Shown: positions 1 to 59,622 of the stretch, piece by piece
Layout: the number at the start of each line of letters is the position of its first letter
Numbering within the stretch: position 1 is the stretch's first letter
DNA from: a virus
Lineage: Duplodnaviria; Caudoviricetes
DNA length: 64,000 bases
Reading direction: 5' to 3' (one strand)
IMG/VR virus record: IMGVR_UViG_2547132519_000001
Location: 70,299 to 134,298 of that record
Made by a program: the position numbers and the translations under genes
Notes under the pieces: model-generated
Seen by the model: the letters and a program-made list of their open reading frames with translations, nothing else
Told to the model about the DNA's origin: nothing
Database searches by the model: none

Positions 1-46
1 AATAGGGCGTAAAACTCACATTTGACTGTGAAAAGGGGAGGTACAG

Positions 47-334
47 ATGTTGATGAATGAATATGGAGATATAATTTTCATCACAAAGTATTATTATAGA
101 GACGATATAAACCCAAATACTACATTTTACAGCGACAGACTTTATCAGTGGGATTGGGAAAAATATAATAAGTGCCATAAAGAAATGTTTTGTAATTATG
201 ATTTTGCAAATATTGAAAAGTTCCTAAATCTATATTATCCAAACCGCAATTTGAAACTGATTTATGTTGAACAGCAAGAAAATGCAAGCAACGGATTTCC
301 ATATTGGAGATTCGAGTGTCACATGGATAAATAA
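47..334 (+). CDS. hypothetical phage protein
   Basis: 95-aa ORF with GGAGG SD. Confidence 0.7.
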   Translation: MLMNEYGDIIFITKYYYRDDINPNTTFYSDRLYQWDWEKYNKCHKEMFCNYDFANIEKFLNLYYPNRNLKLIYVEQQENASNGFPYWRFECHMDK

Positions 335-505
335 GAGTTTATCAATGTTGTATTTGATGAACAGGAGGTAAAATACATGAATAATTTTACAGAACAGATC
401 CCGGAGCATGTATCACCGGAAGTCAGAGATAAGTGCAACAATTAGTGGCGTAACTCTAATGCGTCATGATATAATAGGAAGAAAATGAAAAGGGTGGTAA
501 ATAAA

Positions 506-655
506 ATGCCAGTATTTATAATAATTATAGCTTGGATTATTTATTTGATCTGGGACAAATACCAAAGGGAAGTCCCATCATCAAAAAGGAATATTGATTT
601 TGTTAAGCGTTATAATGAGCTATACAAAGATATGCCTGATATGCAAATTAAGTAA
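506..655 (+). CDS. small membrane protein (49 aa)
   Basis: Read by hand: MPVFIIIIAWIIYLIWDKYQ..., hydrophobic N-terminus, upstream AAGGGTGG. Confidence 0.5.
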   Translation: MPVFIIIIAWIIYLIWDKYQREVPSSKRNIDFVKRYNELYKDMPDMQIK

Positions 656-667
656 AGGAGTGGTTAT

Positions 668-928
668 ATGGAGTGGAAAGATTTGAGTAACGAAGCAAAG
701 TCAATTATAGAGTGGGTAGAAGATCCACGCTCAAATAAAAGGCGGACGGTCGAGGTAGAACTAAATAAAGAATTTGTGTTTCCGATGAGTTTTGATGGCA
801 TGCCTAAAAGTATTATGGTTACAAAAGATTTGTACAAAGAAGTATTAAAGTTTGCGACTGAGGATAAAAACTTGTTTTGTGAACAATTTTTAGATGGATT
901 GATATTTAGTGCTCACGGTAAATGTTAG
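668..928 (+). CDS. hypothetical protein
   Basis: 86-aa ORF with AAGGAG SD. Confidence 0.7.
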   Translation: MEWKDLSNEAKSIIEWVEDPRSNKRRTVEVELNKEFVFPMSFDGMPKSIMVTKDLYKEVLKFATEDKNLFCEQFLDGLIFSAHGKC

Positions 929-1210
929 ATTTTATAGACTTACGCAATAAGGATAGGAAAGTAATTTTTCGATAAGTGCAATACTGGAACAAGGTGAAAT
1001 AGTAGATGATAGCGGAGAGTACGAGCGATATTATTCTGATTCTCCTGGTGGCGAATTTATTAGGTTAAAGATTATTAATTATGACGACAAATTATACGTA
1101 TACAAAGAAAAGGTAACTGAGGATAGACAGCTCAATAAAAAATCAGAATGCGTCGCATTTTATGAGTTAAAATGTGAGTAGAAACTATATTTGATGAAGG
1201 GAAGATAATT

Positions 1211-1438
1211 ATGTTCAGAGAATATATGCAAAAATTGTCAGATCAACAATTAATAGATGCATTTGGAGAACTACAAGACTCGCAAAGTTTGGGAATATTA
1301 AAACCTGGTGGAGAAGTAAGAAGGTTGATGGGAGTATATAAAGATTTTTATTCAACTACTGAACCTTCTATTTCAACGGTTGAGAAGGAAATTTATTATG
1401 AAATGGCTATGAGATATTACGTGGGAAAAGAACGGTAA
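1211..1438 (+). CDS. hypothetical protein
   Basis: 75-aa ORF with SD, bracketed by junction motifs at 1179 and 1436. Confidence 0.65.
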   Translation: MFREYMQKLSDQQLIDAFGELQDSQSLGILKPGGEVRRLMGVYKDFYSTTEPSISTVEKEIYYEMAMRYYVGKER

Positions 1439-1471
1439 AATGATTCTTTGATATAGATAAAAGGGGATAAA

Positions 1472-1780
1472 ATGTTTGGACTATTGCTTGCAGGATTATT
1501 TGGTAAAGGGGCTCATACGGCTTATAAAGATATAGAATTTGATGCAAAAGCTCAAGCAGCTGGTCATAGGCTGCTCATAGGCTGCAATTCATCGAATGAG
1601 GTTATTAGAACTAAATGCATTTTTTCTGATACTCCTGATATGCCTAGGTTAACAGATATAGAGCTTAGCACTATAGAAGAATGGTATAGTAAGAATGGCG
1701 GGGTAAGCAGAGAAATTATGATGGGTTATTATAAACAAACCGGCAAATTTTTATTTGATGCCGTAAGAGAAAAACAATAG
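1472..1780 (+). CDS. hypothetical protein
   Basis: 102-aa ORF with SD. Confidence 0.65.
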   Translation: MFGLLLAGLFGKGAHTAYKDIEFDAKAQAAGHRLLIGCNSSNEVIRTKCIFSDTPDMPRLTDIELSTIEEWYSKNGGVSREIMMGYYKQTGKFLFDAVREKQ

Positions 1781-1809
1781 AAAGCCACTGGATAAATCTG
1801 GTGGCTTTT
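1781..1809 (+). terminator. intrinsic terminator
   Basis: AAAGCCACTGGA-taaa-TCTGGTGGCTTTT hairpin directly after the stop codon. Confidence 0.7.
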
Positions 1810-1881
1810 ATGATGGTGAAATAGTATAATGGAGGGTATAGAGAGGTACAAAGTAGTGTAAGAAATTTAAGGAGATACTCT

Positions 1882-2040
1882 ATGAAAAGATATATGAATG
1901 AACCAGTAGATTATGTATTTACAGATGAGGACGTAGTTAAGGAGTATAAAAGATTTAGTGATATAAAAAGAACGGCCTCAGTGTTTTGTATAGATGCTAA
2001 GATCGTTAAACAAATCTTGAAGAAAAAGGGAGAAAGATAG
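1882..2040 (+). CDS. small hypothetical protein, possible HTH (52 aa)
   Basis: Read by hand: MKRYMNEPVDYVFTDEDVVKEYKRFSDIKRTASVF..., AAGGAG SD. Confidence 0.55.
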   Translation: MKRYMNEPVDYVFTDEDVVKEYKRFSDIKRTASVFCIDAKIVKQILKKKGER

Positions 2041-2053
2041 AAAGGAGATTTTT

Positions 2054-2326
2054 ATGAATTTTATACCTAAATTTGAGAATGGAAATAATGAAACTTTATT
2101 ATTAGATACTCCTTTTTATGTGGAATGTCTTAAGTACGCAGATGAACATAAATTAAATGTACTTTATACCGAAACGGAAAGCACTAGCGCAGTCGAGACG
2201 ATTCTAGAATTTAAAAAGCGTGGATACTCTCATGGATTATATGAAGTGCCTACGTTTGCACCAGGTGGGCTGAGATTGGGAAATAAGATATATTGTAGAT
2301 TTACTAGAAAAATAATTGATAAATAA
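2054..2326 (+). CDS. hypothetical protein
   Basis: 90-aa ORF with AAGGAG SD. Confidence 0.65.
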   Translation: MNFIPKFENGNNETLLLDTPFYVECLKYADEHKLNVLYTETESTSAVETILEFKKRGYSHGLYEVPTFAPGGLRLGNKIYCRFTRKIIDK

Positions 2327-2339
2327 AAAGGGAGGAAAA

Positions 2340-2729
2340 ATGGATAAAAAAGACTTTAATATAGGTCAAACTGTATACTTAAAAGTTATACCAGGAAGCA
2401 ATGCCTCAAGGTATATAGATAAATCCAATCCAGATGAATGGATTAAAGAACGGGTTGTAATAAAAATTGGAAGTAAGTTTCTAACGGTGGCTATTGATAA
2501 TGAAAATAGAGGCGGGGAGGAAAAATTTCATATCCAAAACATTTCTACTCATCGTCATGATGTTGGGCAAAATTATAAACTCTATTTAACCAAGGAATCA
2601 ATTTTAGAAGATCAAGAGTGTGAGAATTTGTATCGCAAAATAAAAAATGGATTCTCCGATTGGGGGAATGAAGGAAAATATTCATTGGATCAACTTAGAT
2701 GTATTATTAAAACGTTGGAGTTGAAATGA
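2340..2729 (+). CDS. hypothetical phage protein
   Basis: ORF track 2316..2729; start moved to the ATG after GGGAGG. Confidence 0.65.
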   Translation: MDKKDFNIGQTVYLKVIPGSNASRYIDKSNPDEWIKERVVIKIGSKFLTVAIDNENRGGEEKFHIQNISTHRHDVGQNYKLYLTKESILEDQECENLYRKIKNGFSDWGNEGKYSLDQLRCIIKTLELK

Positions 2730-2751
2730 TTATTTGATTGGAGGGATTACC

Positions 2752-3105
2752 ATAGGTTACGATATGTATTTGATTAAAGCCGACAAAAGGAAGTTAAGCA
2801 CTCTTGATGGTCTGAAGATATATTACGAAGAAATGGAAAGGGCTACAATATCTGATATAAATAGTTATGATCCCATATTGAGAAGGTTCCACAACGATAG
2901 AGAAGATTTAAGATGGGTATGGGAAGAATACAACTATATACCGAGTGATGTATTCTCCGATATTGTGAACTGGTTAAAAGAAAAGATAGAAAATGAAGAT
3001 TTCGAACCTGGTTATGATAGAATGTATAGAATGGTCTATGACAACATTAAGGATTGGTTGCCATTAAGAAAATATGAAGCAGTGTTTTTTGAAGAAGATG
3101 CTTAG
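2752..3105 (+). CDS. hypothetical phage protein (probable ATA start)
   Basis: ORF track 2734..3105; GGAGGG SD followed by ATA-GGT-TAC-GAT. Confidence 0.6.
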   Translation: MGYDMYLIKADKRKLSTLDGLKIYYEEMERATISDINSYDPILRRFHNDREDLRWVWEEYNYIPSDVFSDIVNWLKEKIENEDFEPGYDRMYRMVYDNIKDWLPLRKYEAVFFEEDA

Positions 3106-3140
3106 AACACATAAAATAATAGATTTATAGGAGGCTATCA

Positions 3141-3341
3141 GTGAGTGATAATATTTTTACTAAACCAGATAGACCATTTTTGTTATTAAGCGAAAACAAT
3201 AATTCTGTGGTTAGCTACTTTTGGTGCGAGACTGAAGAAGAGCTTCAAGAAGTTGCAAAAGATCTGATTGCAGATGGAGACAAAGTGATTGAATCTATCG
3301 AAATTGGAAGTTGTCGCGATATAGATATAAAAATCTTATAG
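3141..3341 (+). CDS. hypothetical protein
   Basis: 66-aa ORF, GGAGG SD, GTG start. Confidence 0.6.
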   Translation: MSDNIFTKPDRPFLLLSENNNSVVSYFWCETEEELQEVAKDLIADGDKVIESIEIGSCRDIDIKIL

Positions 3342-3349
3342 GAGATTTT

Positions 3350-3571
3350 ATTGAAAAAATCATAGCTACGTATAAAAATGCGGTTGAACAGGGGTTTGAC
3401 AGTATTGTACTTGTGATAGATGCAGATGTTGATGAGACATATTATATCAATGATACCGTAAATGGATTCCAGTGCGATAGTTTTGATTACTATTTTGATG
3501 ACTTAGGTTCAGTTGCTGAGGAATTGTTTAACAGAATAAATGGTAATGTTACTGAAATAAAAATAGAATAG
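3350..3571 (+). CDS. hypothetical protein (probable ATT start)
   Basis: ORF track 3311..3571; AGGAG SD precedes ATT at 3350. Confidence 0.55.
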   Translation: MEKIIATYKNAVEQGFDSIVLVIDADVDETYYINDTVNGFQCDSFDYYFDDLGSVAEELFNRINGNVTEIKIE

Positions 3572-3584
3572 GGGAAACAGTAAG

Positions 3585-3842
3585 ATGAAAACGTTATGTG
3601 ATTTAGAAGAGATGAAGAACAAAGGGCACGATTCTTATGAAAATTATTATGATTATTTTATCGCATACTTATCACATTGCTACGTGTCTAAACTGAGCGG
3701 ATTTGCAATTGTAAAATCAGAATTGTCAAAATGGGATAATGAGTCTCAATTTGTTATATTAACAAAGCTGATTGAAGAATTGAGAGAGATGGATATGCAG
3801 TCTGGGTATGATAAACTATTAGAGTTGTTAAATGAAAATTGA
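3585..3842 (+). CDS. hypothetical protein
   Basis: 85-aa ORF. Confidence 0.6.
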   Translation: MKTLCDLEEMKNKGHDSYENYYDYFIAYLSHCYVSKLSGFAIVKSELSKWDNESQFVILTKLIEELREMDMQSGYDKLLELLNEN

Positions 3843-4041
3843 GATTCAAGGAGGAAACCAAGTGAATAGCTTTGAAAAGGAACAAGATAAAATTTTAATG
3901 TTAGAAAAGATGAAAGAAGATTTCTGGGAAACTAAGACTAATGAAGATTCATCATACGAAGAAGTAGAAAGAGATTTTAATGAAATGATAATAGCACATG
4001 AGGCTGATGAAAGAGAAATGGGTATAGAAGAAGATGTATAA
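3832..4041 (+). CDS. hypothetical acidic protein
   Basis: 69-aa ORF; true start may be the GTG after GGAGG. Confidence 0.55.
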   Translation: MKIEIQGGNQVNSFEKEQDKILMLEKMKEDFWETKTNEDSSYEEVERDFNEMIIAHEADEREMGIEEDV

Positions 4042-4230
4042 GATGGAAGATTAAAATCTAAGATTTAAGGCGTTGTTTTCATAAAATTTTAAGGCGGATT
4101 TAGACACTAACGAAAGATCCTATTATAATTGGATAGGAAATATACCGGTGTCTAATTGTGATGTATACTCAGCAAAAGGATATGTGATTTTGCAAAGGCA
4201 AGATGAAGTTTTAATATAAGAGGTGTAATT

Positions 4231-4635
4231 TTGATAAACGAAAATCAAGTTGTTGACTATATCTGTAAATATTTAGAGGACAATAAATATACTGTTGATG
4301 AGCATCGAAATACCTATGAAAGGGGTTATGACATTGTCGCATTTAGCAAAGACGGTAAAAAGCTAATTATTGAAGCCAAGGGTGGTACAAGTTCAAAGCC
4401 TGGAACAAATCGTTTTGGGAAGGATTTTGATAGTAAACAAGTTAGACATCATATTGCTATGGCACTTTATGCGGTTGGTAAAGCCATAACCTCTGATCCG
4501 GAATGTGAAGTTGGTATTGCAATACCTAAAAACGATGAACACATAAAGGCTTTGAAAAGAATACGGAAGGTTATTGATGTTCTGACGATTAGAGTTTATT
4601 GGGTTTCCTCTAATGGTGAAGTTACTGTTGAATAA
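4231..4635 (+). CDS. PD-(D/E)XK restriction-endonuclease-fold protein
   Basis: Motifs E..V, GYDIVA, IIEAKG. Confidence 0.7.
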   Translation: MINENQVVDYICKYLEDNKYTVDEHRNTYERGYDIVAFSKDGKKLIIEAKGGTSSKPGTNRFGKDFDSKQVRHHIAMALYAVGKAITSDPECEVGIAIPKNDEHIKALKRIRKVIDVLTIRVYWVSSNGEVTVE

Positions 4636-4678
4636 TCATAATGAAACTAGGGATTTATTTAAAAAGAGGGGATTATCT

Positions 4679-5269
4679 GTGAAATTACTTAATTACTACC
4701 GCACCATTGAAAAATTCTGGCATATTGGGGAGAAATGGGATAAATTATCTCCTTCAGAAAAAAACGCTATTGAGTTTGCTCACACAAATATAAATCCAGA
4801 ACCAAATCGAATGGCTGCTGATGGAATTCACTACTCTTTAGAATATTGTCTTGCACATTCGGGGGAAAGAATCAATGAAAGATATCGTCGTGACAGGCCA
4901 GATCCGATTGATTTACAGATTGCTGATATGATTGCTAACCATAGAACTAAAATTCCCGTCGTACTTTATCGGGGCGTATGTGAAGCTGTCTTTCGTAAGA
5001 TGTGTGAAAATGCACAACATATAGACAATGCTGATTTTTATGAAAAAGCATTTTTACAAACATCTCTTGTAAAAGGACATGAAATCAAGTCACAATACCA
5101 CTTGAGAATCTACGTACCAGAGGGGGCACAGGCAATTTATTTGGGAAATGTGAACTACGAACAGAAATACTATGAAGTAGTTTTGCAGTGTGGATCAAGG
5201 CTCAAAATCATTTCCATGGACAATAAATATATAAATTGTAGGCTTTTATTAGAATATGAATATAAATAA
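4679..5269 (+). CDS. ADP-ribosyltransferase (VIP2/C3-like R-S-E fold)
   Basis: VLYRGV, FLQTSL, YYEVVL motifs; GTG start after GAGGGG SD (ORF track 4613..5269). Confidence 0.7.
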   Translation: MKLLNYYRTIEKFWHIGEKWDKLSPSEKNAIEFAHTNINPEPNRMAADGIHYSLEYCLAHSGERINERYRRDRPDPIDLQIADMIANHRTKIPVVLYRGVCEAVFRKMCENAQHIDNADFYEKAFLQTSLVKGHEIKSQYHLRIYVPEGAQAIYLGNVNYEQKYYEVVLQCGSRLKIISMDNKYINCRLLLEYEYK

Positions 5270-5293
5270 TTGATTTAATATTATGGGGGAAGC

Positions 5294-6619
5294 ATGGATA
5301 CAACTGACGATATTCTGAATAGACAAGTTTTTCTGGAAAACCTAAAAAAAATAGTGGAGATGCTATCTAATGAAAGAAAAAGTAGCACGTTTGCAATTAA
5401 CGGTGAATGGGGAAGTGGTAAATCGTTCGTACTAAAACGCTTTATAGAAGATATTGAAAATATTCAATCAGAAGATACGGTGTCGGAGAAATATTTAGTA
5501 TTTTATTATGATTGTTGGAAATATGATTATTATGAAGAACCATTAATCGCAATTATAGCAGCGATGTTTGAAATGGCAGAAGAAAAGTTAAAGTTTCTTA
5601 GTACAACATATGATAAAACAATGAAAGCGACTTGGAATACTGTAAAGAATAGCTTGGAAACTATAGCTGGAGAGTTTTGTAAAAGCAAAATAGGATTTGA
5701 TCCATATAAGTTTATAGGTGATGTAAAAAAGGAATATAAGGAGGTAACAAATAGTAGACACGAATTTGATAATATGTTTTCTTTTAAATTAACTCTTGAT
5801 ACTATAAAAAAACAATTGCAGAGATTAGCAAATAATCATACTATTATTATTATAGTTGATGAAATCGACAGATGCTTGCCAGTATATGCGATTAAAATAC
5901 TCGAGCGATTGCATCATACTTTTTTTGATATTAAAAATGTTATAGTGATAATAGCAGTTGATGGTGATCAATTGGATAATACAATCAAACAAATTTATGG
6001 GCAAAATACCAACGTCAATAGATATCTTAAAAAATTTATAGATTTCAAATTAAACTTAGATATAGGCAAGACTAATTTAAATTATGCAGAAAAATATTTA
6101 TCTTATTTTAGTAAATTCTATGTTAACTCAGAATTATATGAAGTAATGGAGGTCCTAGCAAGTTTACTTGATAATATTGATATGAGAACACAAGAAAAGT
6201 TGTTCAATAAGGCCGATACTATACATAGGATTGTTAGTAGTGAGAAAAATGATATCTCTTTGTTATTTTTTGAAATGATGTGGATAATTTTGACTTATAA
6301 ACAAGATTCTCAAAATCTTAGGTGGGTAGTAAGTGGGGATAACAGTTTTAAAATTACTAGAAGTGAAAATGACATGGAAATTAAAATTAAGGAAATTGCT
6401 GATCAATATTGTGGGCCTTCTTGCGCAAGAATTGATGGTAAAGATTATTTAATTGTTAAAAATTCAGCGGTGGGTAAGTCGTTTTTTTACTTATCTTCAA
6501 TATACAATAATTTAGAAAATGGTACTTGTGGAATCCACTTTTTTGATAACGCAAATGAATTAATGGATGAAATATTAAAGGCTCAGAATTTTGTTTCTCT
6601 GACGTACCTAATTCAATAA
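5294..6619 (+). CDS. KAP-family P-loop NTPase
   Basis: Walker A GEWGSGKS, Walker B IIVDEIDRC, YLKKFID. Confidence 0.85.
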   Translation: MDTTDDILNRQVFLENLKKIVEMLSNERKSSTFAINGEWGSGKSFVLKRFIEDIENIQSEDTVSEKYLVFYYDCWKYDYYEEPLIAIIAAMFEMAEEKLKFLSTTYDKTMKATWNTVKNSLETIAGEFCKSKIGFDPYKFIGDVKKEYKEVTNSRHEFDNMFSFKLTLDTIKKQLQRLANNHTIIIIVDEIDRCLPVYAIKILERLHHTFFDIKNVIVIIAVDGDQLDNTIKQIYGQNTNVNRYLKKFIDFKLNLDIGKTNLNYAEKYLSYFSKFYVNSELYEVMEVLASLLDNIDMRTQEKLFNKADTIHRIVSSEKNDISLLFFEMMWIILTYKQDSQNLRWVVSGDNSFKITRSENDMEIKIKEIADQYCGPSCARIDGKDYLIVKNSAVGKSFFYLSSIYNNLENGTCGIHFFDNANELMDEILKAQNFVSLTYLIQ

Positions 6620-6715
6620 AATCATCGTTTTACGAGATTAGAAATAAACACTTGTCAAGACATTAGCGTCTTGTGGGTTGAAAATGTTGGTTTAGTAGGG
6701 TTTGTAAATAGTTAG

Positions 6716-6748
6716 AAGGCATTGGAGAATTATTATCCAGTGCCTTTT
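6716..6748 (+). terminator. intrinsic terminator
   Basis: AAGGCATTGGA...TCCAGTGCCTTTT hairpin. Confidence 0.6.
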
Positions 6749-6894
6749 ATAGTATCTATAAATTAGTGATCAGGAAAGGAAGTAAATATTATGCAAACAC
6801 AATCAATAGAAAACGCACAGAGTAATGTGATTCAATTGTAAGCGCTACATAAAGAAGTGTATTGATCTTTCTGGATTTTTCACCTCTCGAAAAA

Positions 6895-8496
6895 TCAAAT
6901 AGTACCTTTATTCAAGCCACAGGATTTTTGCATTGCTTCTGACCAAGGCATCAGTTCTTCCAGGATACTATCGGGCTCATTTTTGTAGTCCAGCATCTTA
7001 GTCATAACTGTTTCCAGATAAAGACGGATGTTTAATCCATTTGCTTTGGCTGTTTCTGCAAGCGTGTAAACAATTGCACTTGCTTTGGCACCTTTTACAG
7101 TGTCATGAAAGAGGAAGTTTTTTCTTCCCATAACATATGATTTCACGGCTCTTTCAGCTGCGTTATTACTAATGGAGCATCTTCCATCAAGGAGGTAATT
7201 CTCCATATACGATTTTTGGTTTTGGGCATAGTTAATTGCCTTGGCAAGCTTTGATCCGCCAAGGGCATTTATCCCATTCACCCACTTCCAGAATGCATCC
7301 AGTACAGGTCGCTCCAGTTCAAGACGCTTTTTCTGTCGCTCTTCTGGTTCTAAGTCTTTCAGTTCTTTCTCTATCTGAAAGAGTTGGTTGCAGTAGGAAT
7401 AGCCTGTGTAGGCTTCAGATTTTTCGGAGCATGATCCCTTCTTCTTGGGAATCGCTTCGAACATATATCTTCGAAGATGTGCCCAGCACCCGCATCGGGT
7501 AATGTCACTCAAACGGTTGTATCCGCTGAAGCCGTCCGTATGGACAAACCCGTGATAATCAGCAAGGAACTTTGCTGCATGATAGCCGCCCCTTGATGGT
7601 TGATACTCGTAAAGCACAATCCGGTGCTCTTCAAATGCACCGCTGGTGTACAACCATATGTAAGACTTTGATTCTGGAGTCTTGCCATCTTCATTCAAAA
7701 CCTGGCATGTCGTCTCGTCTACATGAATGACGGACTGCCTAAGAAGATACTCATGATATCTCTCATAAACGGGTTCCAGATATTCTTCTGCGCATGTATT
7801 GAACCAGCTGGCAATGGTTCCACGATTCAGCTTGACTCCCAGCTGTGCCCAATCCTGCTCCTGACGATAAAACGGAAGATAGTTCGTACACTTCTGATAC
7901 ATGATGTAAGAGACCGCTGTAGCAGAAGCCATACTGTGATTGATGAGTGGCTTTGGCACAGGTGCCTTCTCAATGGTTGAATCACCATCTTCACGGCACT
8001 GTGGACATGCATAGCTATGCTGTACGTATTGGACACGTTCCACTTTTGCTGGAGTGATATGAATCTCTTCACGAACAACTTTGGAGCCGATATCTTCCAT
8101 TTTAGTATTACAGTAAGGGCAGTTACGAGAATCACCTTCCAGTAAAAGCTCAATGGTCCTTATCGGTACATTTTTTGTAAGTTCATCATGCGTAGCACGG
8201 GATTTTTTCTTCTCATGCGCTGTCACATTGATCATTTCCGGTTCGTGAACGTGTTCATCAATTCCCAACTGATCGAACAAGCTGAGTTGTCCGTCAATGT
8301 AAGGTAAGTTCGATGATTTCTCACTGGAAATACCAAAGATTTTTCGTTTCAGTTCATTAATTGTTTCCGTGAGGTTTGCAATGGTCTGGTTTAATTGTTC
8401 CATCTGATGATCTTTTGCTTCCAGCTGTTTGAGCAGATTACTGACCAGCAGATTCATGTTAAGATCTTCGGTTTCAACAGACTTTTTCATGACCAT
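6895..8496 (-). CDS. tnpC: IS66 transposase TnpC
   Basis: Leucine-zipper N-terminus, CPYC/CPQC Zn finger, HVDET, HTDGFSGY, CWAHLRR, NNAAER. Confidence 0.95.
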   Translation of the reverse strand: MVMKKSVETEDLNMNLLVSNLLKQLEAKDHQMEQLNQTIANLTETINELKRKIFGISSEKSSNLPYIDGQLSLFDQLGIDEHVHEPEMINVTAHEKKKSRATHDELTKNVPIRTIELLLEGDSRNCPYCNTKMEDIGSKVVREEIHITPAKVERVQYVQHSYACPQCREDGDSTIEKAPVPKPLINHSMASATAVSYIMYQKCTNYLPFYRQEQDWAQLGVKLNRGTIASWFNTCAEEYLEPVYERYHEYLLRQSVIHVDETTCQVLNEDGKTPESKSYIWLYTSGAFEEHRIVLYEYQPSRGGYHAAKFLADYHGFVHTDGFSGYNRLSDITRCGCWAHLRRYMFEAIPKKKGSCSEKSEAYTGYSYCNQLFQIEKELKDLEPEERQKKRLELERPVLDAFWKWVNGINALGGSKLAKAINYAQNQKSYMENYLLDGRCSISNNAAERAVKSYVMGRKNFLFHDTVKGAKASAIVYTLAETAKANGLNIRLYLETVMTKMLDYKNEPDSILEELMPWSEAMQKSCGLNKGTI

Positions 8497-8584
8497 GTAC
8501 CTCCTTGAATGATATACTTATTATACCACAAAGGAGACCGCAAAGCCAGTAAATAAGCGGTTCTGCGTGTACTTTATCAGATGC

Positions 8585-8938
8585 TTAAAAGGGCTTTTTG
8601 GCAACGGGTTTAATTGCCTTTGGCTGCTCAATAGAAAGACCTTCCATAAGCCAACGGAATTCCTGTCTGGTCAAATTTCTAACATCTTCTGAATTACGTG
8701 GCCACTGGAAACGGCCGGAATCTAACCGTTTATAAAGTAACACAAAACCATCTTTGTCAAAATGCAGTGCCTTCAGTCTGTCGCATCTTTTTCCGCAGAA
8801 AAGAAAAAGGGAATTACTGAAAGGATCTAACTCATAGGTATCCCGGACAATTGCCATAAGACCGTCTATGCTACGCCTCATATCGGTGTAGCCGGCCACA
8901 AGAAATATCTTTGCCACGCCGGAGAGATCACCTAGCAC
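8585..8938 (-). CDS. tnpB: IS66 accessory protein TnpB
   Basis: TDMRRSIDGL, LFLFCG, KRLDSGRFQWP. Confidence 0.95.
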   Translation of the reverse strand: MLGDLSGVAKIFLVAGYTDMRRSIDGLMAIVRDTYELDPFSNSLFLFCGKRCDRLKALHFDKDGFVLLYKRLDSGRFQWPRNSEDVRNLTRQEFRWLMEGLSIEQPKAIKPVAKKPF

Positions 8939-9297
8939 AGTTGTCGCAACGCATTTAATGTTGCTGTAATAATGGCGGCATCTGCATTGTTACTGATAGC
9001 CAAAACAAAGCCATTGTATTCCAGATGGATTGCAATCCGATCCGTTTGTTTTTTAGGAAGAACTGCTTTTGTTTCTTGCAGTTCGTTGTAGTGAATTGGT
9101 ACAACTTCTGTTTTCTCTAGAACTTTTGGAACAGAGTCAGGAATCATAGAGGCTTTCTTCCTCAGCCGCTTTATATTGTAATAAAAAGAGCTGGTAGGTA
9201 TACCATTCTGACTGCACCAGGCGTAATCAGATAAGCCGCTTACGCGGCACTGCTGGATGCAATCCATCCAGTATTCATCTTTTTGAGCTTTTGTCAT
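8932..9297 (-). CDS. tnpA: IS66 accessory protein TnpA
   Basis: SGLSDYAWCSQNGIPTSSFYY HTH-like segment; position upstream of tnpB. Confidence 0.9.
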   Translation of the reverse strand: MTKAQKDEYWMDCIQQCRVSGLSDYAWCSQNGIPTSSFYYNIKRLRKKASMIPDSVPKVLEKTEVVPIHYNELQETKAVLPKKQTDRIAIHLEYNGFVLAISNNADAAIITATLNALRQLC

Positions 9298-11054: not shown

Positions 11055-11082
11055 TAGATTGTATAATAATGGAGGAAATACT

Positions 11083-11730: not shown

Positions 11731-11768
11731 AAATAAAAGAACTGTTTCAATGTAAAAAAGGCGATAGG

Positions 11769-12053: not shown

Positions 12054-12121
12054 CTCACTTTATATATAATATAGCATATATAGATAAGAAAATAAATATA
12101 AAATATATTTACTATATATAA

Positions 12122-12150
12122 TTGACTTTATATAAAATATATTATATAAT
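12122..12150 (+). promoter_or_regulatory. sigma-A promoter of the mazF-like gene
   Basis: TTGACT-N17-TATAAT within an extremely AT-rich divergent intergenic region. Confidence 0.75.
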
Positions 12151-12555: not shown

Positions 12556-12563
12556 GTGGTTAA

Positions 12564-47658: not shown

Positions 47659-47802
47659 TATAATCAACAACGATTAGCAGATCGTAAGTAAATGTAAATA
47701 CCATAAAAATCAGCAAAAATTTAAAAACAGCATTGAAACTCCGCATTTATCTGATTTGTAAGTGTCAGTAAAGAGTAATATACAATTTAAGGAGATGATT
47801 AA

Positions 47803-49705: not shown

Positions 49706-49741
49706 AAATACATAAAATTAAAGATTCAAAGACATTAAAAA

Positions 49742-50107: not shown

Positions 50108-51151
50108 ATTATAGAAACAATTTTACATACCAATAGTGGAAAAATTATAAATGGTGAAAACATAGAGTTGTTAGAAACATTAGAAATAAATTCAGTTGAC
50201 AATTGTATCTCAGATTTTCCATATGATTTATCGTTTATGGGCAAGAAGTGGGACAATACTGGGAACTTCTATGATTGGAATAAGGAGAGAGCAACAAAAT
50301 TAATTAAAGTGATTAAACCTGGTGGATACGTTGCAATATTTGGGCACCCCAAAACTAATCATAGGATGAAATGTGCATTTGAAGATTCAGGATTTAAAAT
50401 TGTTGAAGAAATTGATTGGATCTATCTTACTGGAATGCCTAAGAATCAGGATATAGGCAAGCTCTTTAACAAGGTTAAAATAGATGAATTAGCAAAGAAG
50501 TGGAATGGTTGGAAAACATCTGGGCTTAAACCAGCGCACGAACCAATCACAATATTTCAGAAACCATTAGAAGGAACATATGTCCAAAATATTGAGAAAC
50601 ACAGCTGTGGCGGAATGAATATTGATGCGTGTAGAGTTCCTATATCAAAGGAAGACATTGATATGCTAAATGCCAAAGCGTCTAAGGTTCCAACGACTAA
50701 TTATTCTGATAGAGATGACCGCATATATGGCAAATACGCAGAAGATAAGGCCATGCCTCCTAATGAATCAGGTAGGTTTCCATCAAACATTGTGGTTGAC
50801 GAGTATGTGGCTGAATTTTTAAATGATCAGATAGAAGATGGAAGCTAATATTTTACCGTCATCAAATATGAACCGAAGATTTCTCCTTCAGAAAGAAAAC
50901 TTCCTAACGGTGATCGCAATCCACATGTTACACCTAAACCAGTAGCATTAATCAAATGGTTGATTAAATTACTTACTCCGATTAACGGCGCAACCATTGA
51001 TATTACCGCTGGAAGCTGTACTCATGCTGTGGCTTGTGAAGAACTCAATAAAAATGACGGTTATGGATTGAAATACATAAATGTAGAATTGATGAATACT
51101 GAAGAAGAGCCTTATTGTAGCGTTGGAGAAATGAGAGTAAAAGCAGTTTAG
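50108..51151 (+). pseudogene. N4/N6 DNA methyltransferase with one in-frame TAA (50846)
   Basis: SDFPY, LKPAHEPI, GRFPSN, then in the same frame after TAA: HVTPKP, DITAGS; probable ATT/ATA start after AAGGAG. Confidence 0.8.
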
Positions 51152-51185
51152 GATGAAATGACGATTTCAAATAGTGAGTAAAGAT

Positions 51186-51785
51186 TTAAATGTTGCTTCC
51201 ATTTCTGCACCAACGAACAAAATTTTCACAGTTATTAGAGAACAAATCGTAACCAGAAAGTCCTTCTTTTAAATACGCTCTGGTAACAACTTCGCAAATT
51301 TCATAAATAATCGGACTATCCGATGAGGACAAACGATATAAAACATATCCATTTTTAAAGTTTTCGAGAGAAGTGCGGTGAATCATTATGTCGAAATCGT
51401 TTTTGGAGAAATGCATAACTTCGTCTCCGCCAAGATATAGTCCGTGATGACTGTATAAGCCCTTATTAATAAAAAGATGATCTCCTTCTGTTAATTTGGA
51501 GGAGTCAATAATTTTTGTACCTGAATACAGGTGTGAAGCGTTACCAATAGTTTCATTAATATTTTCTGCTTTATCACATAATAAGTTAACCGATTTTACA
51601 ATTGGTTCAAATATTGTGTCTTCAGAAAGAAATTCGGTCATTGACCGTGCATCATTAAGCATTTTGCGGTGTTTATCACGGCGCTGTTCTTGCTCAAATT
51701 TAGCCTGATCAACCGTAAATTCAATCGCATATTTTATGTCACCAATTTTGTCAGTAATTGCTTCAAAAATATCGTCTATGAACAT
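51186..51785 (-). CDS. LRAT-like (permuted NlpC/P60) protein
   Basis: GDHL, YSHHGLYLG, VMHF, YDLFSNNCENFVRWC; promoter TTGACA-N17-TATCTT at 51817-51845 (minus). Confidence 0.85.
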   Translation of the reverse strand: MFIDDIFEAITDKIGDIKYAIEFTVDQAKFEQEQRRDKHRKMLNDARSMTEFLSEDTIFEPIVKSVNLLCDKAENINETIGNASHLYSGTKIIDSSKLTEGDHLFINKGLYSHHGLYLGGDEVMHFSKNDFDIMIHRTSLENFKNGYVLYRLSSSDSPIIYEICEVVTRAYLKEGLSGYDLFSNNCENFVRWCRNGSNI

Positions 51786-51919
51786 ATAGGCCTCCGTATT
51801 AGTTATTATGTTACATAAGATAAACTATTATTATCGAGTTGTCAATATTATGAACGATATAATGCTTCAATATAACCTGCGTATTAGGCAATTAAGTAAA
51901 TGAAAGAGAGGATTTATTT

Positions 51920-52072
51920 ATGGAAAGTAGAACTGTATCAGGTATAGGATTTGGTAGCGCTTTGGCGATAGTTTTATCATGGACAACATGGCACAGCATA
52001 TGGTGGGCGATACTACACGGAATATTTAGTTGGTTTTATGTTATCTACTATGCGATTAATTATATGGGATGA
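51920..52072 (+). CDS. small membrane protein (50 aa)
   Basis: Read by hand: MESRTVSGIGFGSALAIVLSWTTWHSIWWAILHGIFSWFYVIYY; bracketed by junction motifs at 51901 and 52070. Confidence 0.7.
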   Translation: MESRTVSGIGFGSALAIVLSWTTWHSIWWAILHGIFSWFYVIYYAINYMG

Positions 52073-52104
52073 AAGTAACGATTTATTGAGAAAGGAGGTG
52101 ACGA

Positions 52105-52467
52105 GTGGTGCATCCGAACAGTTTTTTTAAAGAGGCATTTTGTAAAACAGGATTAGATGTTTTTGAAATATTTGACGAAGATTTAAGATCAAAACTGCAA
52201 AGTATCCATCCTTTAAATTTTCTAAAAAGTAAAATAACATTGCCAGTATACAAGGTTATTTTGGACTACGATACCGAAAACGACAATCATAAAACGGTTG
52301 AAAGGTATATGGTAATGGATAGTAAGCTTGAAGAAGAATTTGCTGACATGTGGGCAGATATTTATTGCAGAGATTACAACAATAATCACACAAATAAGCA
52401 AATGAAAAATTTGAGCATTATGAACGTGGAATATATCTGTGACGCTGTGCTACCAATTGGTTGTTAA
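52105..52467 (+). CDS. hypothetical protein
   Basis: 120-aa ORF with AGGAGG SD. Confidence 0.65.
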   Translation: MVHPNSFFKEAFCKTGLDVFEIFDEDLRSKLQSIHPLNFLKSKITLPVYKVILDYDTENDNHKTVERYMVMDSKLEEEFADMWADIYCRDYNNNHTNKQMKNLSIMNVEYICDAVLPIGC

Positions 52468-52643
52468 TGGATGTCAATCGTATTTTAAACCTTTATTTAT
52501 TAAAGGTTGTCACAAGATTATAAGAATGGATCGTTGATTCTAAGTAATCGAAAAAGGGATGTGATAGTGACGTAAAAAGACACTCACTAAGTATGGCTTT
52601 ACCTCATAAAAAGCGAAATTGACTTTTATGAGGAGAATACATA

Positions 52644-53726
52644 TTGACATTAGACATTAACAAGGTTTTGGATAAATTGCCCCAGGACGAAATAATTGTA
52701 AATAACTTTATTAAGGCATGGAAAATAATAAATAACCCAGATTATGAAAAGATAGTTTGTTCTATTTCTGGAGGATCAGATAGTGATGACATGTTGGATA
52801 TTTGCTATAGATGCGACATAAGTAAAAAGATTGATTATGTTTGGTTCAATACGGGTCTGGAGTATGAGGCCACTAAGGAGCACTTAAAACGCCTTGAAGC
52901 TACATACGATATAAAGATAAAAAAGATTAAGGCAATTAAACCGATTCCAGTTTCTTGTAAGAAATATGGACAACCGTTTATTTCAAAGCGTGTAAGCAAT
53001 TACATAGAAAGATTGCAAAAGCATGGATTTAAATGGGAGGATAGACCATTTGATGATTTACTCATTGAGTATTGCAAAGAAATACCTGCAAATGAAGCTA
53101 TTAAAAATGGAAAGCTAAAGAAGAAAATAGCAGAATATAAAGGTAAATATTGGAGAGGGTGTTTCTCAGCTCTTAATTGGTGGTGTGGAACCACAAAATC
53201 AAAGCGTATGAGTATATACCAAAACAAGTGGCTTAAGGAGTTTTTAATATTGAATCCACCAATAGAAATAAAAATATCTGATAAATGTTGTAAAGGGGCC
53301 AAAAAGGATATTATACACAAAATTCTAAAAGAAGGAAATTACGATCTGAACATTTTTGGCATTAGGAAAGCAGAAGGGGGAACGAGGTCTACTGCTTATA
53401 AGAACTGTTTTGATGAAAACTATGATTCTTGCGATAACTATAGGCCATTGTTTTTTTATAAGAATGAAACAAAAACAGTATACGAAAATCATTTCAATAT
53501 TTGCCACAGTGATTGTTATACAAAATATGGATTGAAGAGAACTGGTTGTGCCGGTTGCCCATTTGGTAGAGATTTTGAATTTGAGTTGGAAGTGATTCAG
53601 AAATACGAGCCAAGACTATACACAGCAGTAAATTACATATTTGGGAAAAGTTATGAGTACACAAGAAAATATCGTGAGTTTTGCAAAACAATGAACGAGC
53701 AAGAGAAGCATAATAAGTTGAAATAA
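52644..53726 (+). CDS. PAPS-reductase-family (PP-loop) protein
   Basis: SISGGSDS, NTGLEY, SDKCC, GIRKAEG, RTGCAGCPF. Confidence 0.85.
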   Translation: MTLDINKVLDKLPQDEIIVNNFIKAWKIINNPDYEKIVCSISGGSDSDDMLDICYRCDISKKIDYVWFNTGLEYEATKEHLKRLEATYDIKIKKIKAIKPIPVSCKKYGQPFISKRVSNYIERLQKHGFKWEDRPFDDLLIEYCKEIPANEAIKNGKLKKKIAEYKGKYWRGCFSALNWWCGTTKSKRMSIYQNKWLKEFLILNPPIEIKISDKCCKGAKKDIIHKILKEGNYDLNIFGIRKAEGGTRSTAYKNCFDENYDSCDNYRPLFFYKNETKTVYENHFNICHSDCYTKYGLKRTGCAGCPFGRDFEFELEVIQKYEPRLYTAVNYIFGKSYEYTRKYREFCKTMNEQEKHNKLK

Positions 53727-53730
53727 TACT

Positions 53731-54078
53731 TTGATTGGCAGATTGGAGGTGTTCGTACTGGAAGAGTTTTTACCGATGCTAAGTGAGTTATTAGCTGATG
53801 AATTACTAGAAAAGCATGTTGTTAACCAGTGTAGTGATACAGCTCCACAGTATATTATTAATATGCTGAGAAGGTATCATATTACTTATGATGACAAAAC
53901 CAAGGATTATTTAAAAATAGCATATCAAGTAAAGGAAATTTATAAATGTGTAGATTGGACTGTTGATTCACGTGGCAATCATACTGAAGAAGCAATTGGT
54001 TACATGGCATTGCTTGAGGCTATATGCGGGATAAGATATGCAAATAAGTTCCAGTGTTTGATAATGGAATTACCTTAA
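53731..54078 (+). CDS. hypothetical protein
   Basis: 115-aa ORF between junction motifs at 53719 and 54076. Confidence 0.55.
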   Translation: MIGRLEVFVLEEFLPMLSELLADELLEKHVVNQCSDTAPQYIINMLRRYHITYDDKTKDYLKIAYQVKEIYKCVDWTVDSRGNHTEEAIGYMALLEAICGIRYANKFQCLIMELP

Positions 54079-54103
54079 AACAAACCATTCAAATAGAAAA
54101 GAG

Positions 54104-54439
54104 GTGATTAATATATACGGAAATGTCGGTGAAAAGTGGGTTCAAATTAAAGAGTTAAAATTGGGAGCTTTAGATCTCAAAGAGATAGGAACTGAATTTA
54201 CAATTAAAGATTACTATTCTGTGCCACACGGCTTTTCTTCAATTGAATATAAGGGTGTTCTGTTATTTATTCCAGATAAGATATTCGAGGAGCACTTTGT
54301 TAAGTGGAGTAAGTATAAACAGTATTATCAGTTGGGAGATCAGATAATGATTAATGCTAACGGGAATTTAAGTACATACACCATTAAATACATAAAGGGT
54401 AACGGAAACTGTATAACACTGGATCTTAAGCATGATTAA
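54104..54439 (+). CDS. hypothetical protein
   Basis: 111-aa ORF. Confidence 0.6.
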   Translation: MINIYGNVGEKWVQIKELKLGALDLKEIGTEFTIKDYYSVPHGFSSIEYKGVLLFIPDKIFEEHFVKWSKYKQYYQLGDQIMINANGNLSTYTIKYIKGNGNCITLDLKHD

Positions 54440-55549: not shown

Positions 55550-55599
55550 ATAAATCGGAAGTTTTATATATAAAAATCGAAAAACAAGGAGAAGATTCA

Positions 55600-57783: not shown

Positions 57784-57793
57784 GAGGCGATTT

Positions 57794-57979
57794 ATGAACA
57801 TCGGGTATGGTAAATTTAATGATAAAGTGAGGAACCAGATTTGCCCTATGTGCGGTAAAGACATTTATGTACATAAATATGGAAGAAATTTTGCGTGTGT
57901 AAATATTGATTGTCCTTTGGGACATGAAGCAAAAGAACTCGTGGAAAAGATAAATAAAATAATATATATGATTAATTAG
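57794..57979 (+). CDS. small Zn-ribbon protein
   Basis: CPMCG...CVNIDC; ATG after GGAGG. Confidence 0.55.
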   Translation: MNIGYGKFNDKVRNQICPMCGKDIYVHKYGRNFACVNIDCPLGHEAKELVEKINKIIYMIN

Positions 57980-58003
57980 AATTGAACTTTAAAGGAGGAA
58001 TAT

Positions 58004-58180
58004 ATGGAATTAATTTCAGTCAAAGATAGATTACCAACGAAAAGCAAGCCATATTTAGTGCAATTTGTGAATTATAAGCACGTGTGGTTCGAAGTAATCC
58101 ACTTTCAAGCAAAGTGTAAAAAGTGGAAAAGGTTAAGTCACTTAGTGGTTGCGTGGTGTGACTTACCAGAATCAATTTGA
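58004..58180 (+). CDS. small DUF551-like protein
   Basis: Read by hand: MELISVKDRLP...VVAWCDLPE. Confidence 0.55.
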   Translation: MELISVKDRLPTKSKPYLVQFVNYKHVWFEVIHFQAKCKKWKRLSHLVVAWCDLPESI

Positions 58181-58268
58181 ACCAATTAAGATAAATACAA
58201 TGTTTCTACTTATATCATATCAAGAAAAATCCCAACAATTTTACAATTAAATATAGGAGGCAAAAACG

Positions 58269-58469
58269 ATTAAAGGAATTATTTATGCTGAAGATTTAGC
58301 TATGGAATTATTAAAATATCCCAGGGCTTTGGTTTGTGCTGGCAAAATTGGGTCAGATTCATATAGAAATGACAGAAAAATAGAGAATGTATATTTGAGA
58401 GATGGGAATACCGTTGTCTTGAATGTAGAAAATTACGATGACAATGGAGAATTAAAATATTACAGATAG
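58269..58469 (+). CDS. hypothetical protein, ATT start
   Basis: 66-codon open frame after GGAGG SD. Confidence 0.5.
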   Translation: MKGIIYAEDLAMELLKYPRALVCAGKIGSDSYRNDRKIENVYLRDGNTVVLNVENYDDNGELKYYR

Positions 58470-58479
58470 GAGGAAACAA

Positions 58480-59067
58480 ATGCATATTAGCAATGTAAAT
58501 ATTTATGGATTTGAAAATGCCATTAGAGCTAGTAAGTTTCCAATGGCGGTTAATGCGGAAGATTGTACAAAAGAATTAACGAAAACTACTACAAGATTAG
58601 GCTCCTGTAAATCAGGCACGGGTCACGATAACTTCCTTAAGGGGATAGTGGTTCAGTTTGACATGAGATTCTCTAATAAAATGTCCGTCGAACTCGAAAG
58701 ATACCACTTTATTGATTTTATTTCTAGTCAATCCACAATGCATCGAATTACAAAATTCAAGCTTAAAGAGCAATGTAACGAGTATGTGGATCAGAGAATT
58801 ATTGATGTTGTTCAGGAAATGATTGATGTCTATAACGGATTAATGGATAAGGGGACTGATTTTGCAAAGGACTTATATTTGAGGATTTTATACAATGTTC
58901 CGTCTGGGTTTGAATTAACTGCTGGTTTCACTACAAACTATCAGCAATTAAAAACCATCTATTGGCAGCGCAAAAATCATCGTCTCCCAGAGTGGCGAGA
59001 GTTTTGTAAATGGGTAGAAACTTTGCCGAAGTTTGGAGAATTAGTATTAGGAGGTGAAAATAATTGA
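58480..59067 (+). CDS. divergent ThyX-like protein
   Basis: GHDNFL, ELERYH...SQSTMH, NYQQL, RKNHRLPEW; sits in the nucleotide-metabolism cluster. Confidence 0.55.
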   Translation: MHISNVNIYGFENAIRASKFPMAVNAEDCTKELTKTTTRLGSCKSGTGHDNFLKGIVVQFDMRFSNKMSVELERYHFIDFISSQSTMHRITKFKLKEQCNEYVDQRIIDVVQEMIDVYNGLMDKGTDFAKDLYLRILYNVPSGFELTAGFTTNYQQLKTIYWQRKNHRLPEWREFCKWVETLPKFGELVLGGENN

Positions 59068-59591
59068 TCGTAATTTTAGGAGAGAGTGCTAGTGGTAAAT
59101 CTACAGTGCAGGATATCTTATGTAAGAATTATGGATATGTAAGACTAATTACGTACACAACAAGAAGTCCAAGGAAAGGCGAAGAAAACGGAGTAGATTA
59201 TCATTTTATTTCAGAAGATACATTTGAAGAAATGAGCAGAAAAGGAGAGTTTTGTGAAACGGCAGAATACAATGGTTGGCACTATGCAACTGCGAAAGCT
59301 GATTGTACTAATAATAAAGTAGTCGTACTTACACCCCACGGACTGAGGCAGATGAAAAAAATTGTTGATCTTACTCTTGATGCTTTCTATATTAATGTAC
59401 CGAGAAGAGATAGACTCGTCAAAATCTTACAGCGAGGTGACAATATTGAAGAAGCATATCGTAGATCTCTTTCTGACGTTGGTCAGTTTGATGGAATTGG
59501 TGATGAGGTTGATTTGGTGATATGCAATCCAGGTTATGAAAAGAGTCCGAAAGAAATTGCAGAGGAGATTATTAGCAGATTAAGGAGATGA
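59064..59591 (+). CDS. gmk: guanylate kinase-like protein
   Basis: GESASGKS, TTRSPRKGEENGVDYHF. Confidence 0.9.
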   Translation: MIVILGESASGKSTVQDILCKNYGYVRLITYTTRSPRKGEENGVDYHFISEDTFEEMSRKGEFCETAEYNGWHYATAKADCTNNKVVVLTPHGLRQMKKIVDLTLDAFYINVPRRDRLVKILQRGDNIEEAYRRSLSDVGQFDGIGDEVDLVICNPGYEKSPKEIAEEIISRLRR

Positions 59592-59622
59592 AAGATGGTT
59601 TTCAATGGAAGTGAGGTAAGGT

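Follow-up and report, generated by a model that had tools for sequence, protein, structure and literature searches.

Introduction

In the Bacillus subtilis prophage SPbeta, the master repressor MrpR (YopR) binds a repeated 15-bp intergenic element, SPBRE; MrpR is reported to have a tyrosine-recombinase fold and to act purely as a repressor, and ten peaks were seen by chromatin affinity precipitation sequencing (ChAP-seq), all of them in promoter regions (PMC10516654). In T4-type phages, the elements called PeSLs are reported to be composites of a promoter and a stem-loop terminator that recombine through homology and give rise to mini-circles (PMC2839356, PMC4122927). Here we describe a short palindromic word, with the core form TRAAA-N6-TTTYA, that is repeated at gene junctions in the last 64 kb (64,000 nucleotides, hereafter the window) of IMG/VR record IMGVR_UViG_2547132519_000001, a 134,298-bp phage record classed as provirus. 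The word is an inverted repeat of fixed geometry that marks junctions of the variable accessory region, as the initial annotation of this DNA had proposed, and we tentatively read it as a candidate operator-like site for a DNA-binding protein of the phage.

Set against SPBRE, our word is alike in being a short, repeated intergenic element of a large temperate Firmicutes phage and in being specific to the prophage (14 of the 27 perfect TGAAA-N6-TTTCA copies in one host genome, G016, lie on the prophage contig), with the difference that the reader of the element is phage-encoded there and only proposed to be so here. The sites described here are also five times more numerous, at about 50, and for the most part appear to lie inside operons, and no catalytically dead recombinase paralogue was seen alongside them. 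Since MrpR is a recombinase fold acting as a repressor, a recombinase-type site geometry need not mean recombination. The likeness to PeSLs is that of short repeated elements in hyperplastic accessory regions, found at indel or replacement boundaries of close relatives; our word, however, is neither promoter nor hairpin, has 10-12 conserved bases, and coincides with 5 of 60 ends of homology blocks in the pair of relatives that we mapped.

Integron attC sites are folded single-stranded hairpins of tens of bp, with an imperfect inverted repeat that often overlaps a stop codon. As in an integron, small genes of the same orientation are here separated by an imperfect inverted repeat that often overlaps a stop, and a tyrosine recombinase gene lies nearby; unlike attC, the word has no folded-hairpin signature, measures 16-18 bp and does not flank insertions, the majority of cassette boundaries fall outside it, and the sites are distributed along 76 kb, to either side of the recombinase gene. 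The classical tyrosine-recombinase sites (lox, FRT, dif and the attP core) have longer arms, and their partner sites share a central overlap. Inverted arms around an exact N6 are found here as well, but they are 5-6 bp long and all cores differ. Operators of Cro/CI-type helix-turn-helix dimers, such as those of phage 434, measure 14-17 bp and are few and located at promoters; the likeness lies in two inverted half-sites about one helical turn apart around a non-conserved 6-bp centre, and the difference in that our sites are many and lie at gene junctions.

Results

Whole-record G+C is about 34%. The first 58 kb are mostly minus-strand with large structural-type genes (the late half), and the remaining 76 kb are plus-strand (the early/accessory half). 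Gene coordinates were obtained with a home-made caller based on open reading frames (ORFs) and codon usage and are approximate, especially for starts and for ORFs shorter than 50 aa; by these calls, junction DNA makes up 12.3% of the window.

The window contained 13 copies of the perfect word TRAAA-N6-TTTYA, where first-order Markov simulations predicted 2.4. Ten of these copies were at junctions and three in coding sequence, whereas the same arms at other spacers (N3-N9) gave 0-4 matches, all coding. When at least nine of the ten fixed bases had to match, N6 yielded 69 sites (32 junction, 37 coding) and the other spacers 3-10 junction and 24-44 coding matches, which places the coding N6 sites at background level. 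The signal persisted when stop codons were controlled for: for the 91 TAA/TGA stops at which early plus-strand genes end, TTTYA stood at offset 11 in 12 cases, whereas the remaining offsets between 6 and 17 had 0-3 each. Junction TRAAA words that are not stops had TTTYA at offset 11 in 9 of 127 cases (0-2 elsewhere), and coding TRAAA words in 3 of 543 (0-4 elsewhere). Over the early region of the record, 20 perfect sites were found with N6 against 1-4 for the other spacers from N2 to N11; the late structural half showed no clear excess, with 6 perfect sites against 0-5 at other spacers. All of these are fixed-consensus counts with spacer controls, an iterated weight matrix having been dropped because it drifted towards purine-rich sequence.

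The junction motif is real, and about 25 of the 32 junction sites in the window stand above background; this agrees with the figure of about 36 copies at about a third of junctions given in the initial annotation. The 16-mers that it quoted are present at all 13 coordinates, although three of them are weak (those at 342 and 21936 match at 7/10 positions and that at 5263 at 8/10), and the loosest form that it allowed, TNAA-N8-TTNA, is mostly background (133 observed against 88 expected). Its remark that the sak-to-HD replication block, the NAD operon, the ABC operon and nrdDG are free of internal junction sites also stands, by our list of early-region sites. Overall, the motif marks a quarter to a third of the accessory junctions.

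A logo of the 50 early-region junction sites with at least 9/10 matches gave the consensus (A/T)-T-R-A-A-A-B-N4-V-T-T-T-Y-A-(T/A), 16-18 bp in length, in which the two-fold symmetry reaches the flanking base and also the bases that are avoided, A at position 6 and T at position 11. Apart from this, the centre is unconstrained: read by eye from the site list, the 50 sites have 50 different N6 cores. Positions 2 and 15 vary independently of each other (GC 8, AC 5, GT 7 and AT 6 in genome G000; GC 14, AC 13, GT 18 and AT 11 in G005), and such independent arms in a palindrome fit a protein dimer on double-stranded DNA rather than a hairpin. From its letters, the pattern fits two identical protein subunits that are predicted to sit on half-sites one helical turn apart on duplex DNA.

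About 50 copies are spread through the early/accessory half, about 32 of them in the window, and they occupy the short spacer from the stop codon of one gene to the ribosome-binding site of the next. In this record, 18 of the 50 sites contain the stop codon and 38 start no more than 10 nt from it (counted from the site list). Across 11 genomes, 313 perfect 14-mer cores were found at tandem junctions, of which 150 begin at the stop and 159 end no more than 30 nt from the next start; 10 of the 11 genomes have a median distance of 24-43 nt from site to next start. In four genomes (G004, G006, G007 and G008) the outer base is not T, and the motif there contains no stop codon. Overlap with the stop is thus not general across the family, which makes it a by-product of tight packing. 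An attC-like anchoring to stop codons was considered and set aside, as it holds in G000 (16/23) and G004 (23/31) and fails over the family as a whole (the 150 of 313 above). We also rejected the idea of gene-sized transposons that end in the word as a terminal inverted repeat and duplicate their target, since the cores of neighbouring sites are unrelated.

The 14 kb in which the sites are densest, immediately upstream of the window, contain few strong promoter-like or terminator-like sites, so most copies appear to be intra-operonic. A consensus scan of these 14 kb, which is weak evidence, gave four plus-strand promoters at 11/12 matches, two of them directly behind a site; one at about 46306 in the window is likewise directly behind a site, and most sites have none. 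The flanks of the logo held no conserved promoter hexamers.

This placement would suit a role at the RNA level, in which an intercistronic hairpin, or the site of a protein or an RNase such as a MazF-like endoribonuclease, processes early transcripts or tunes translation of the next gene: the sites are intra-operonic and lie between stop codon and ribosome-binding site, at the median distances from the next start given above, and every one of the 11 genomes has a MazF/PemK-like gene. However, A-C at the second pair is as common as G-C (41 A-C against 54 G-T among 342 junction sites; 13 of 56 in G005), and a stem of five A/U-rich pairs has no stability; with its frequent mismatches, such a stem cannot be the functional form. 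The arms also change jointly between lineages as mirror images, as set out below, which would be needless for a reader of single-stranded RNA. We therefore regard an RNA-level role as very unlikely.

Relatives of the phage were found through a polymerase search that returned 15 viral loci; ten whole records were fetched, giving the 11 genomes compared. Relatives recovered with the polymerase lie in Clostridium sp. and Lachnospiraceae genomes. The group consists of uncultivated prophages of about 115-160 kb from Clostridia and Lachnospiraceae. None of the named phages is a close relative: among 50,697 phage records, megablast with two stretches of the window gave no match, and tblastn with the DnaB-like protein gave only matches below 25% identity. 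A Clostridium genome with a 96% identical polymerase has only a few genes in common with window positions 1-20000 and offered no close comparison.

The N6 palindrome was present at junctions in all 11 related prophage records, with half-sites that differ between lineages. G000, G002 and G005 use TGAAA together with TAAAA (TGAAA counts of 8 against 0.6, 12 against 0.6 and 14 against 0.3, respectively). The half-site is almost only TAAAA in G009 (43 against 3.3), and TAAAA is also that of G010 and G003. In G004, G006, G007 and G008 it is NGAAA, often AAGAAA; AGAAA was counted 9 times against 1.1 in G007, and GAAA-N6-TTTC at junctions 13-24 times against 0-4 in controls across these four. Counted over whole records, RAAA-N6-TTTY is too degenerate to be informative when gene context is left aside. 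In the 4.8-Mb host genome G016, the 13 perfect TGAAA-N6-TTTCA copies that lie off the prophage contig equal the control count of 13, and the motif is thus confined to the prophage in this one host genome. Together, the constant geometry, the lineage-specific letters and the confinement to the prophage point to a phage-encoded reader that would co-evolve with its sites.

The same data bear on a site for a host protein or a structural DNA element, in which phased A- and T-tracts would bend the DNA for a nucleoid protein, gyrase or the replication machinery. The A3-N6-T3 phasing of about one helical turn is of the kind expected, the nucleoid-protein site named as an alternative in the initial annotation belongs here, and no phage binder has been found so far. 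Against this, the host chromosome outside the prophage has no excess of sites, the identity of the outer and second half-site bases goes with the phage lineage, and the sites are restricted to junctions instead of being scattered in AT-rich DNA. We hold such a role to be quite improbable.

The genomes are extremely mosaic: the replication block alone is syntenic, and single genes of 80-94% identity are found among unrelated neighbours. Across 95 orthologue pairs (at least 70% identity and at least 80% coverage) with unrelated downstream neighbours, identity anchored at the stop codon fell from about 0.65 to 0.48 at +6 to +10 and to 0.38 at +16 to +20, which indicates that homology ends right past the stop, whatever comes next. 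Between diverged genomes, 545 of 584 conserved junction pairs had no perfect site in either member; the rest are mostly gene-start artefacts or coding sequence and are uninformative on conservation of the site.

Fine mapping was done on G006 and G007, the single pair close enough to allow it, which belong to the NGAAA lineage and share 72 kb at 88% identity or more; junctions were counted in the early ranges, with opposite-strand junctions and spacers longer than 400 nt excluded. The two genomes align in 54 collinear blocks with 34 indel or replacement events. Block ends lay within 4 nt of a perfect site in 5 of 60 cases, against 0-3 for control spacers. By eye, about 12 of the 34 events have a left arm within which homology begins or a right arm at which it stops, the motif being imperfect in one genome in several of them. 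Other breaks fell at ribosome-binding sites (events 2, 9R, 11, 24R and 27), at start codons (4, 12 and 22R) and at stop codons. Perfect sites were more frequent at broken than at unbroken junctions (7/33 against 2/53 in G006, p 0.024; 8/33 against 2/54 in G007, p 0.0055), but this contrast was not significant among junctions long enough to hold a site (p 0.14-0.66), and the control word with N5 also gave 4-5 matches at broken junctions. All four single-gene insertions examined (events 2, 7, 8 and 14) had one copy of the site or none and were not flanked on both sides.

The window itself was compared with assembled metagenome contigs, disregarding the joints 10997->17350 and 11198->16764, whose sides are shorter than 30 letters. 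Relatives at 95% identity or more occur in silage-metagenome runs. In two variants the break falls at 15766, a position that belongs to the core of a 9/10 site and at the same time closes a stop codon. A variant lacking the SprT-like gene (X6) rejoins at 16347, 3 nt before the site at 16350, and homology to another contig (X3) begins at 4057, within the site at 4052. Further contigs begin at 1222, 1472 and 2343, each at a start codon or adjacent to one. In comparison with the nearest relatives, a translocated two-gene unit of the window (52108-53726), found elsewhere in G001, is bounded by sites at both ends; its 5' edge is the site at 52070, and homology ends just past the site at 53719. For the gene at 54104-54439, homology to G002 begins with the left arm of the site at 54076, and several other genes common to G001-G003 break at a ribosome-binding site, start codon or stop codon.

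We weighed these breakpoints for the possibility that the word is a recombination site, at which a phage tyrosine recombinase or a site-specific nuclease would promote gain, loss or exchange of accessory genes; this could operate in an integron-like manner, or the sites could be crossover hot spots between allelic sites of related co-resident phages. The inverted arms around 6 bp, the confinement of the sites to the hypervariable accessory region and the two or three tyrosine recombinases per genome with intact catalytic residues all suit this idea, but the arms are only 5-6 bp, show no hairpin covariation and enclose cores that all differ, and classical tyrosine recombinases require matching cores. 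Likewise, the perfect sites at broken junctions, the events at arm edges, the site-bounded unit shared with G001 and the contig breaks at 4057 and 15766 speak for it, yet the junction contrast is lost once spacer length is considered, the block ends at perfect sites and the N5 matches stand as given above, the single-gene insertions are without a second copy, and breakpoints are equally common at ribosome-binding sites, start codons and stop codons. In addition, all 54 blocks of G006 and G007 are collinear, and the recombinase gene of the window is split by an insertion sequence (IS) element, yet the full set of sites is kept in the record. On balance, we consider a recombination site unlikely.

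The initial annotation had proposed that the sites may form an integron-like crossover system, a reading that is weakly supported: insertions are unflanked, the cores are all different, the arms do not covary and few breakpoints lie at sites. It had also suggested asking whether breakpoints of gene gain and loss fall in the motif, which is so for a minority at the motif's edges and not for the remainder, many of which fall at a ribosome-binding site, start or stop that carries no motif. Some swaps do make use of the motif's edges, but to no greater extent than of other short features conserved at junctions. The more specific proposal that a phage tyrosine recombinase or nuclease cuts at the core edges, so that related Clostridia prophages swap single defence or counter-defence genes at defined points, seems to us quite unlikely; if true, it would amount to a cassette platform functionally comparable to an integron and built on a 16-bp double-stranded site.

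Every genome encodes two or three tyrosine recombinases. That of the window matches only the general Phage_integrase family (Pfam), with sites on both sides of it. The initial annotation had named it as a catalytic-domain-only recombinase that is possibly the cassette enzyme; the gene turns out to be that of an ordinary-looking small tyrosine recombinase split by an IS66-family element, whose ends were fixed by loose contig ends from three runs. A second IS66 copy with the same ORF lengths lies outside the window at genome positions 22190-24592. The recombinase of the late region was considered as an inactive MrpR-like copy after a PDB comparison had suggested a Tyr-to-His change, and was rejected when alignment put the Tyr one residue further on. 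An XRE-family helix-turn-helix gene, a candidate of another kind, has counterparts in 10 of the 11 genomes; a CII/DUF6471-like helix-turn-helix protein encoded immediately upstream of the window is a further candidate binder, as are small conserved early proteins. In the window the XRE gene is divergent (-) from the MazF/PemK-like gene (+) over 11772-12552, across a spacer rich in TATATA-type repeats with a TTGACT-17-TATAAT promoter. The presence of the MazF/PemK-like family in all 11 genomes is unusual for a toxin-antitoxin-type gene.

The features of the window are collected in Table 1. Annotation of 98 window ORFs with Pfam identified a replication block that runs from a Sak annealing protein to an HD nuclease and includes DnaB, a primase and PolIII-alpha. 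The accessory genes include ADP-ribosyltransferase-like, KAP NTPase and GmrSD-like genes, the MazF/PemK-like gene beside the divergent XRE repressor, the NAD salvage operon, an ABC transporter, a reverse transcriptase, three methylases and nrdDG, among others. No homologue of the NAD salvage operon was found at E <1e-5 in the three nearest relatives, G001-G003.

Table 1. Motif sites and other features in the window. Perfect, all ten fixed bases of TRAAA-N6-TTTYA; 9/10, nine of the ten.
Feature	Position	Strand	Remarks
Perfect site	6617-6632		bases 1-3 form the KAP NTPase stop codon
Perfect site	11734-11749		6 nt past the stop of gene 11083-11730; adjoins the 3' end of the minus-strand XRE gene
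Perfect site	19862-19877		spacer before gene 19919-20101; overlaps a second 9/10 site, 19876-19891
Perfect site	21736-21751		18 nt past a stop codon
Perfect site	25478-25493		bases 1-3 form the NAD synthase stop codon, with which the NAD operon ends
Perfect TGAAA-N6-TTTCA site	30800-30815		long spacer from ABC/OmpA gene to replication block
Perfect site	43411-43426		stop codon in common with gene 43171-43413
Perfect TGAAA-N6-TTTCA site	46276-46291		4 nt past a stop; TTGACA hexamer 14 nt downstream
Perfect TGAAA-N6-TTTCA site	51154-51169		between convergent genes 50960-51151 (+) and LRAT 51186-51785 (-)
Perfect TGAAA-N6-TTTCA site	59589-59604		stop codon in common with guanylate-kinase-like gene
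Perfect matches inside coding sequence	5041-5056, 35702-35717, 45825-45840		number at chance level
Seven 9/10 junction sites, 16 bp each	starts 10, 919, 1436, 2039, 3112, 4052, 4642		small-gene region 10-4657
9/10 site	6679-6694		about 100 nt upstream of the split recombinase gene
9/10 site	12874-12889		after gene 12564-12845
9/10 site	15759-15774		core contains the stop codon of gene 15419-15766
9/10 site	16350-16365		stop in common with SprT-like gene
9/10 junction site	21392-21407		
9/10 site	41472-41487		between gene 41303-41470 (+) and reverse-transcriptase gene (-)
9/10 site	45594-45609		after ligase gene
Two 9/10 junction sites	47734-47749, 49713-49728		flank methylase genes; G002 homology ends at the second
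Two 9/10 sites	51901-51916, 52070-52085		bracket 50-aa ORF 51920-52072
Two 9/10 sites	53719-53734, 54076-54091		
9/10 site	55551-55566		same N6 core as the site after the orthologous G002 gene; arms differ
Small tyrosine recombinase gene, main part	9478-10223	+	first codons at about 6791-6837; candidate only
IS66-family element	6838-9477		TnpC 531 aa, TnpB 110 aa and 121-aa ORF, all minus; inserted in recombinase gene
XRE/Cro-C1 helix-turn-helix gene	11772-12044	-	Pfam HTH_26/HTH_3; candidate binder only
NAD salvage operon, four genes	21967-25477		isochorismatase-type nicotinamidase, phosphoribosyltransferase, NAMPT/NAPRTase-like enzyme, NAD synthase

Several other features came to light in the course of this work. 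Two terminator-like hairpins with a near-identical stem and the same loop region (GGTCAAATGTT) lie at 4094-4125 and 13518-13549 of locus L005 (genome 60094-60125 and 69518-69549) and look like a second repeated element of the early region. In G006 and G007, a second type of palindrome, ACACTATATATAGT, stands about 20 nt upstream of several junction motifs (events 1, 3, 12 and 13); we take it to resemble an NrdR box. In the late region, a non-coding block between two large minus-strand ORFs (L001 1460-1640, genome 27560-27740) is more than 90% identical to G002 where its surroundings are about 75% identical, and it holds a perfect TGAAA-N6-TTTCA whose core is identical in the record and G002; the block may represent an intron or structured RNA. 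At window 13189-13262, a tRNA-Gln (anticodon TTG) is encoded in the long spacer before the gene for a 680-aa protein with Sigma70_r2 and GmrSD_N domains. Finally, within gene 2054-2326, 139 nt (window 2096-2236) are swapped for 14 other letters in contigs of two silage-metagenome runs, a variant internal to a small ORF.

Discussion

Our observations cover the motif and its symmetry, where it is placed, how widely it occurs in the family and its restriction to the prophage. We tentatively favour an operator-like array for a phage-encoded dimeric DNA binder, the arms of which would incidentally serve as short homologies in swaps; on the sequence evidence this is possible, though well short of assured. 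It is favoured because the hallmarks of site-specific cassette insertion are missing: insertions lack duplicate sites on their flanks, cores are not shared, the arms give no sign of hairpin pairing, and use of the sites is not near-exclusive. The initial annotation had itself named an operator or nucleoid-protein site as its alternative, and this suits the data better than its cassette reading. In outline, the 16-18 bp word A-TRAAA-(not A)-N4-(not T)-TTTYA-T would be bound on double-stranded DNA by a two-fold symmetric protein that the prophage itself encodes; the binding, the identity of the protein and the effect of binding are points that we infer. The bound protein would act on transcription through the junctions, serving as a roadblock to it or as an insulator or silencer of the accessory genes; the prophage state is the most plausible setting, and our best guess is that transcription across accessory junctions is blocked or insulated in the lysogen. 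The arrangement would then be a denser version of the MrpR-SPBRE system of the Bacillus phage SPbeta. Protein and sites would co-evolve, so that the N6 geometry is kept while half-sites differ among related phages. The arms may double as short homologies at which some gene swaps end, much as ribosome-binding sites do, because they are among the few sequences common to otherwise unrelated junctions.

Several observations weigh against an operator-like array. About 50 intra-operonic operators would be unusual for a repressor, and whereas SPBRE is reported to lie in promoter regions, most of the sites described here appear to lie elsewhere. An inactive recombinase like MrpR was not found in the 11 genomes, in which 24 of 24 paralogues keep R, HxxR and Y by alignment. 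The promoter region of the XRE repressor itself holds TATA-type repeats and not the motif, no core protein family sorts the 11 genomes as the half-site classes do, and no binder was singled out among the phage proteins examined. Moreover, nearly all sites are found at junctions that vary from one relative to the next, as seen in the conserved junction pairs, a pattern that a role in recombination also predicts, and some homology breakpoints fall at site edges.

The accessory half of these prophages is a patchwork of single genes (ADP-ribosyltransferase-like, KAP NTPase, GmrSD-like, reverse transcriptase and methylase genes and the NAD salvage operon). If the word is indeed the operator-like site that we tentatively propose, a phage-specific, co-evolving pair of protein and site would provide a new handle on how accessory genes are silenced or insulated in the lysogen, and it might also bear on how these genes are exchanged. 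Once the binder is found, the drift of half-sites at constant geometry across the family would offer a natural series from which to read its recognition code.

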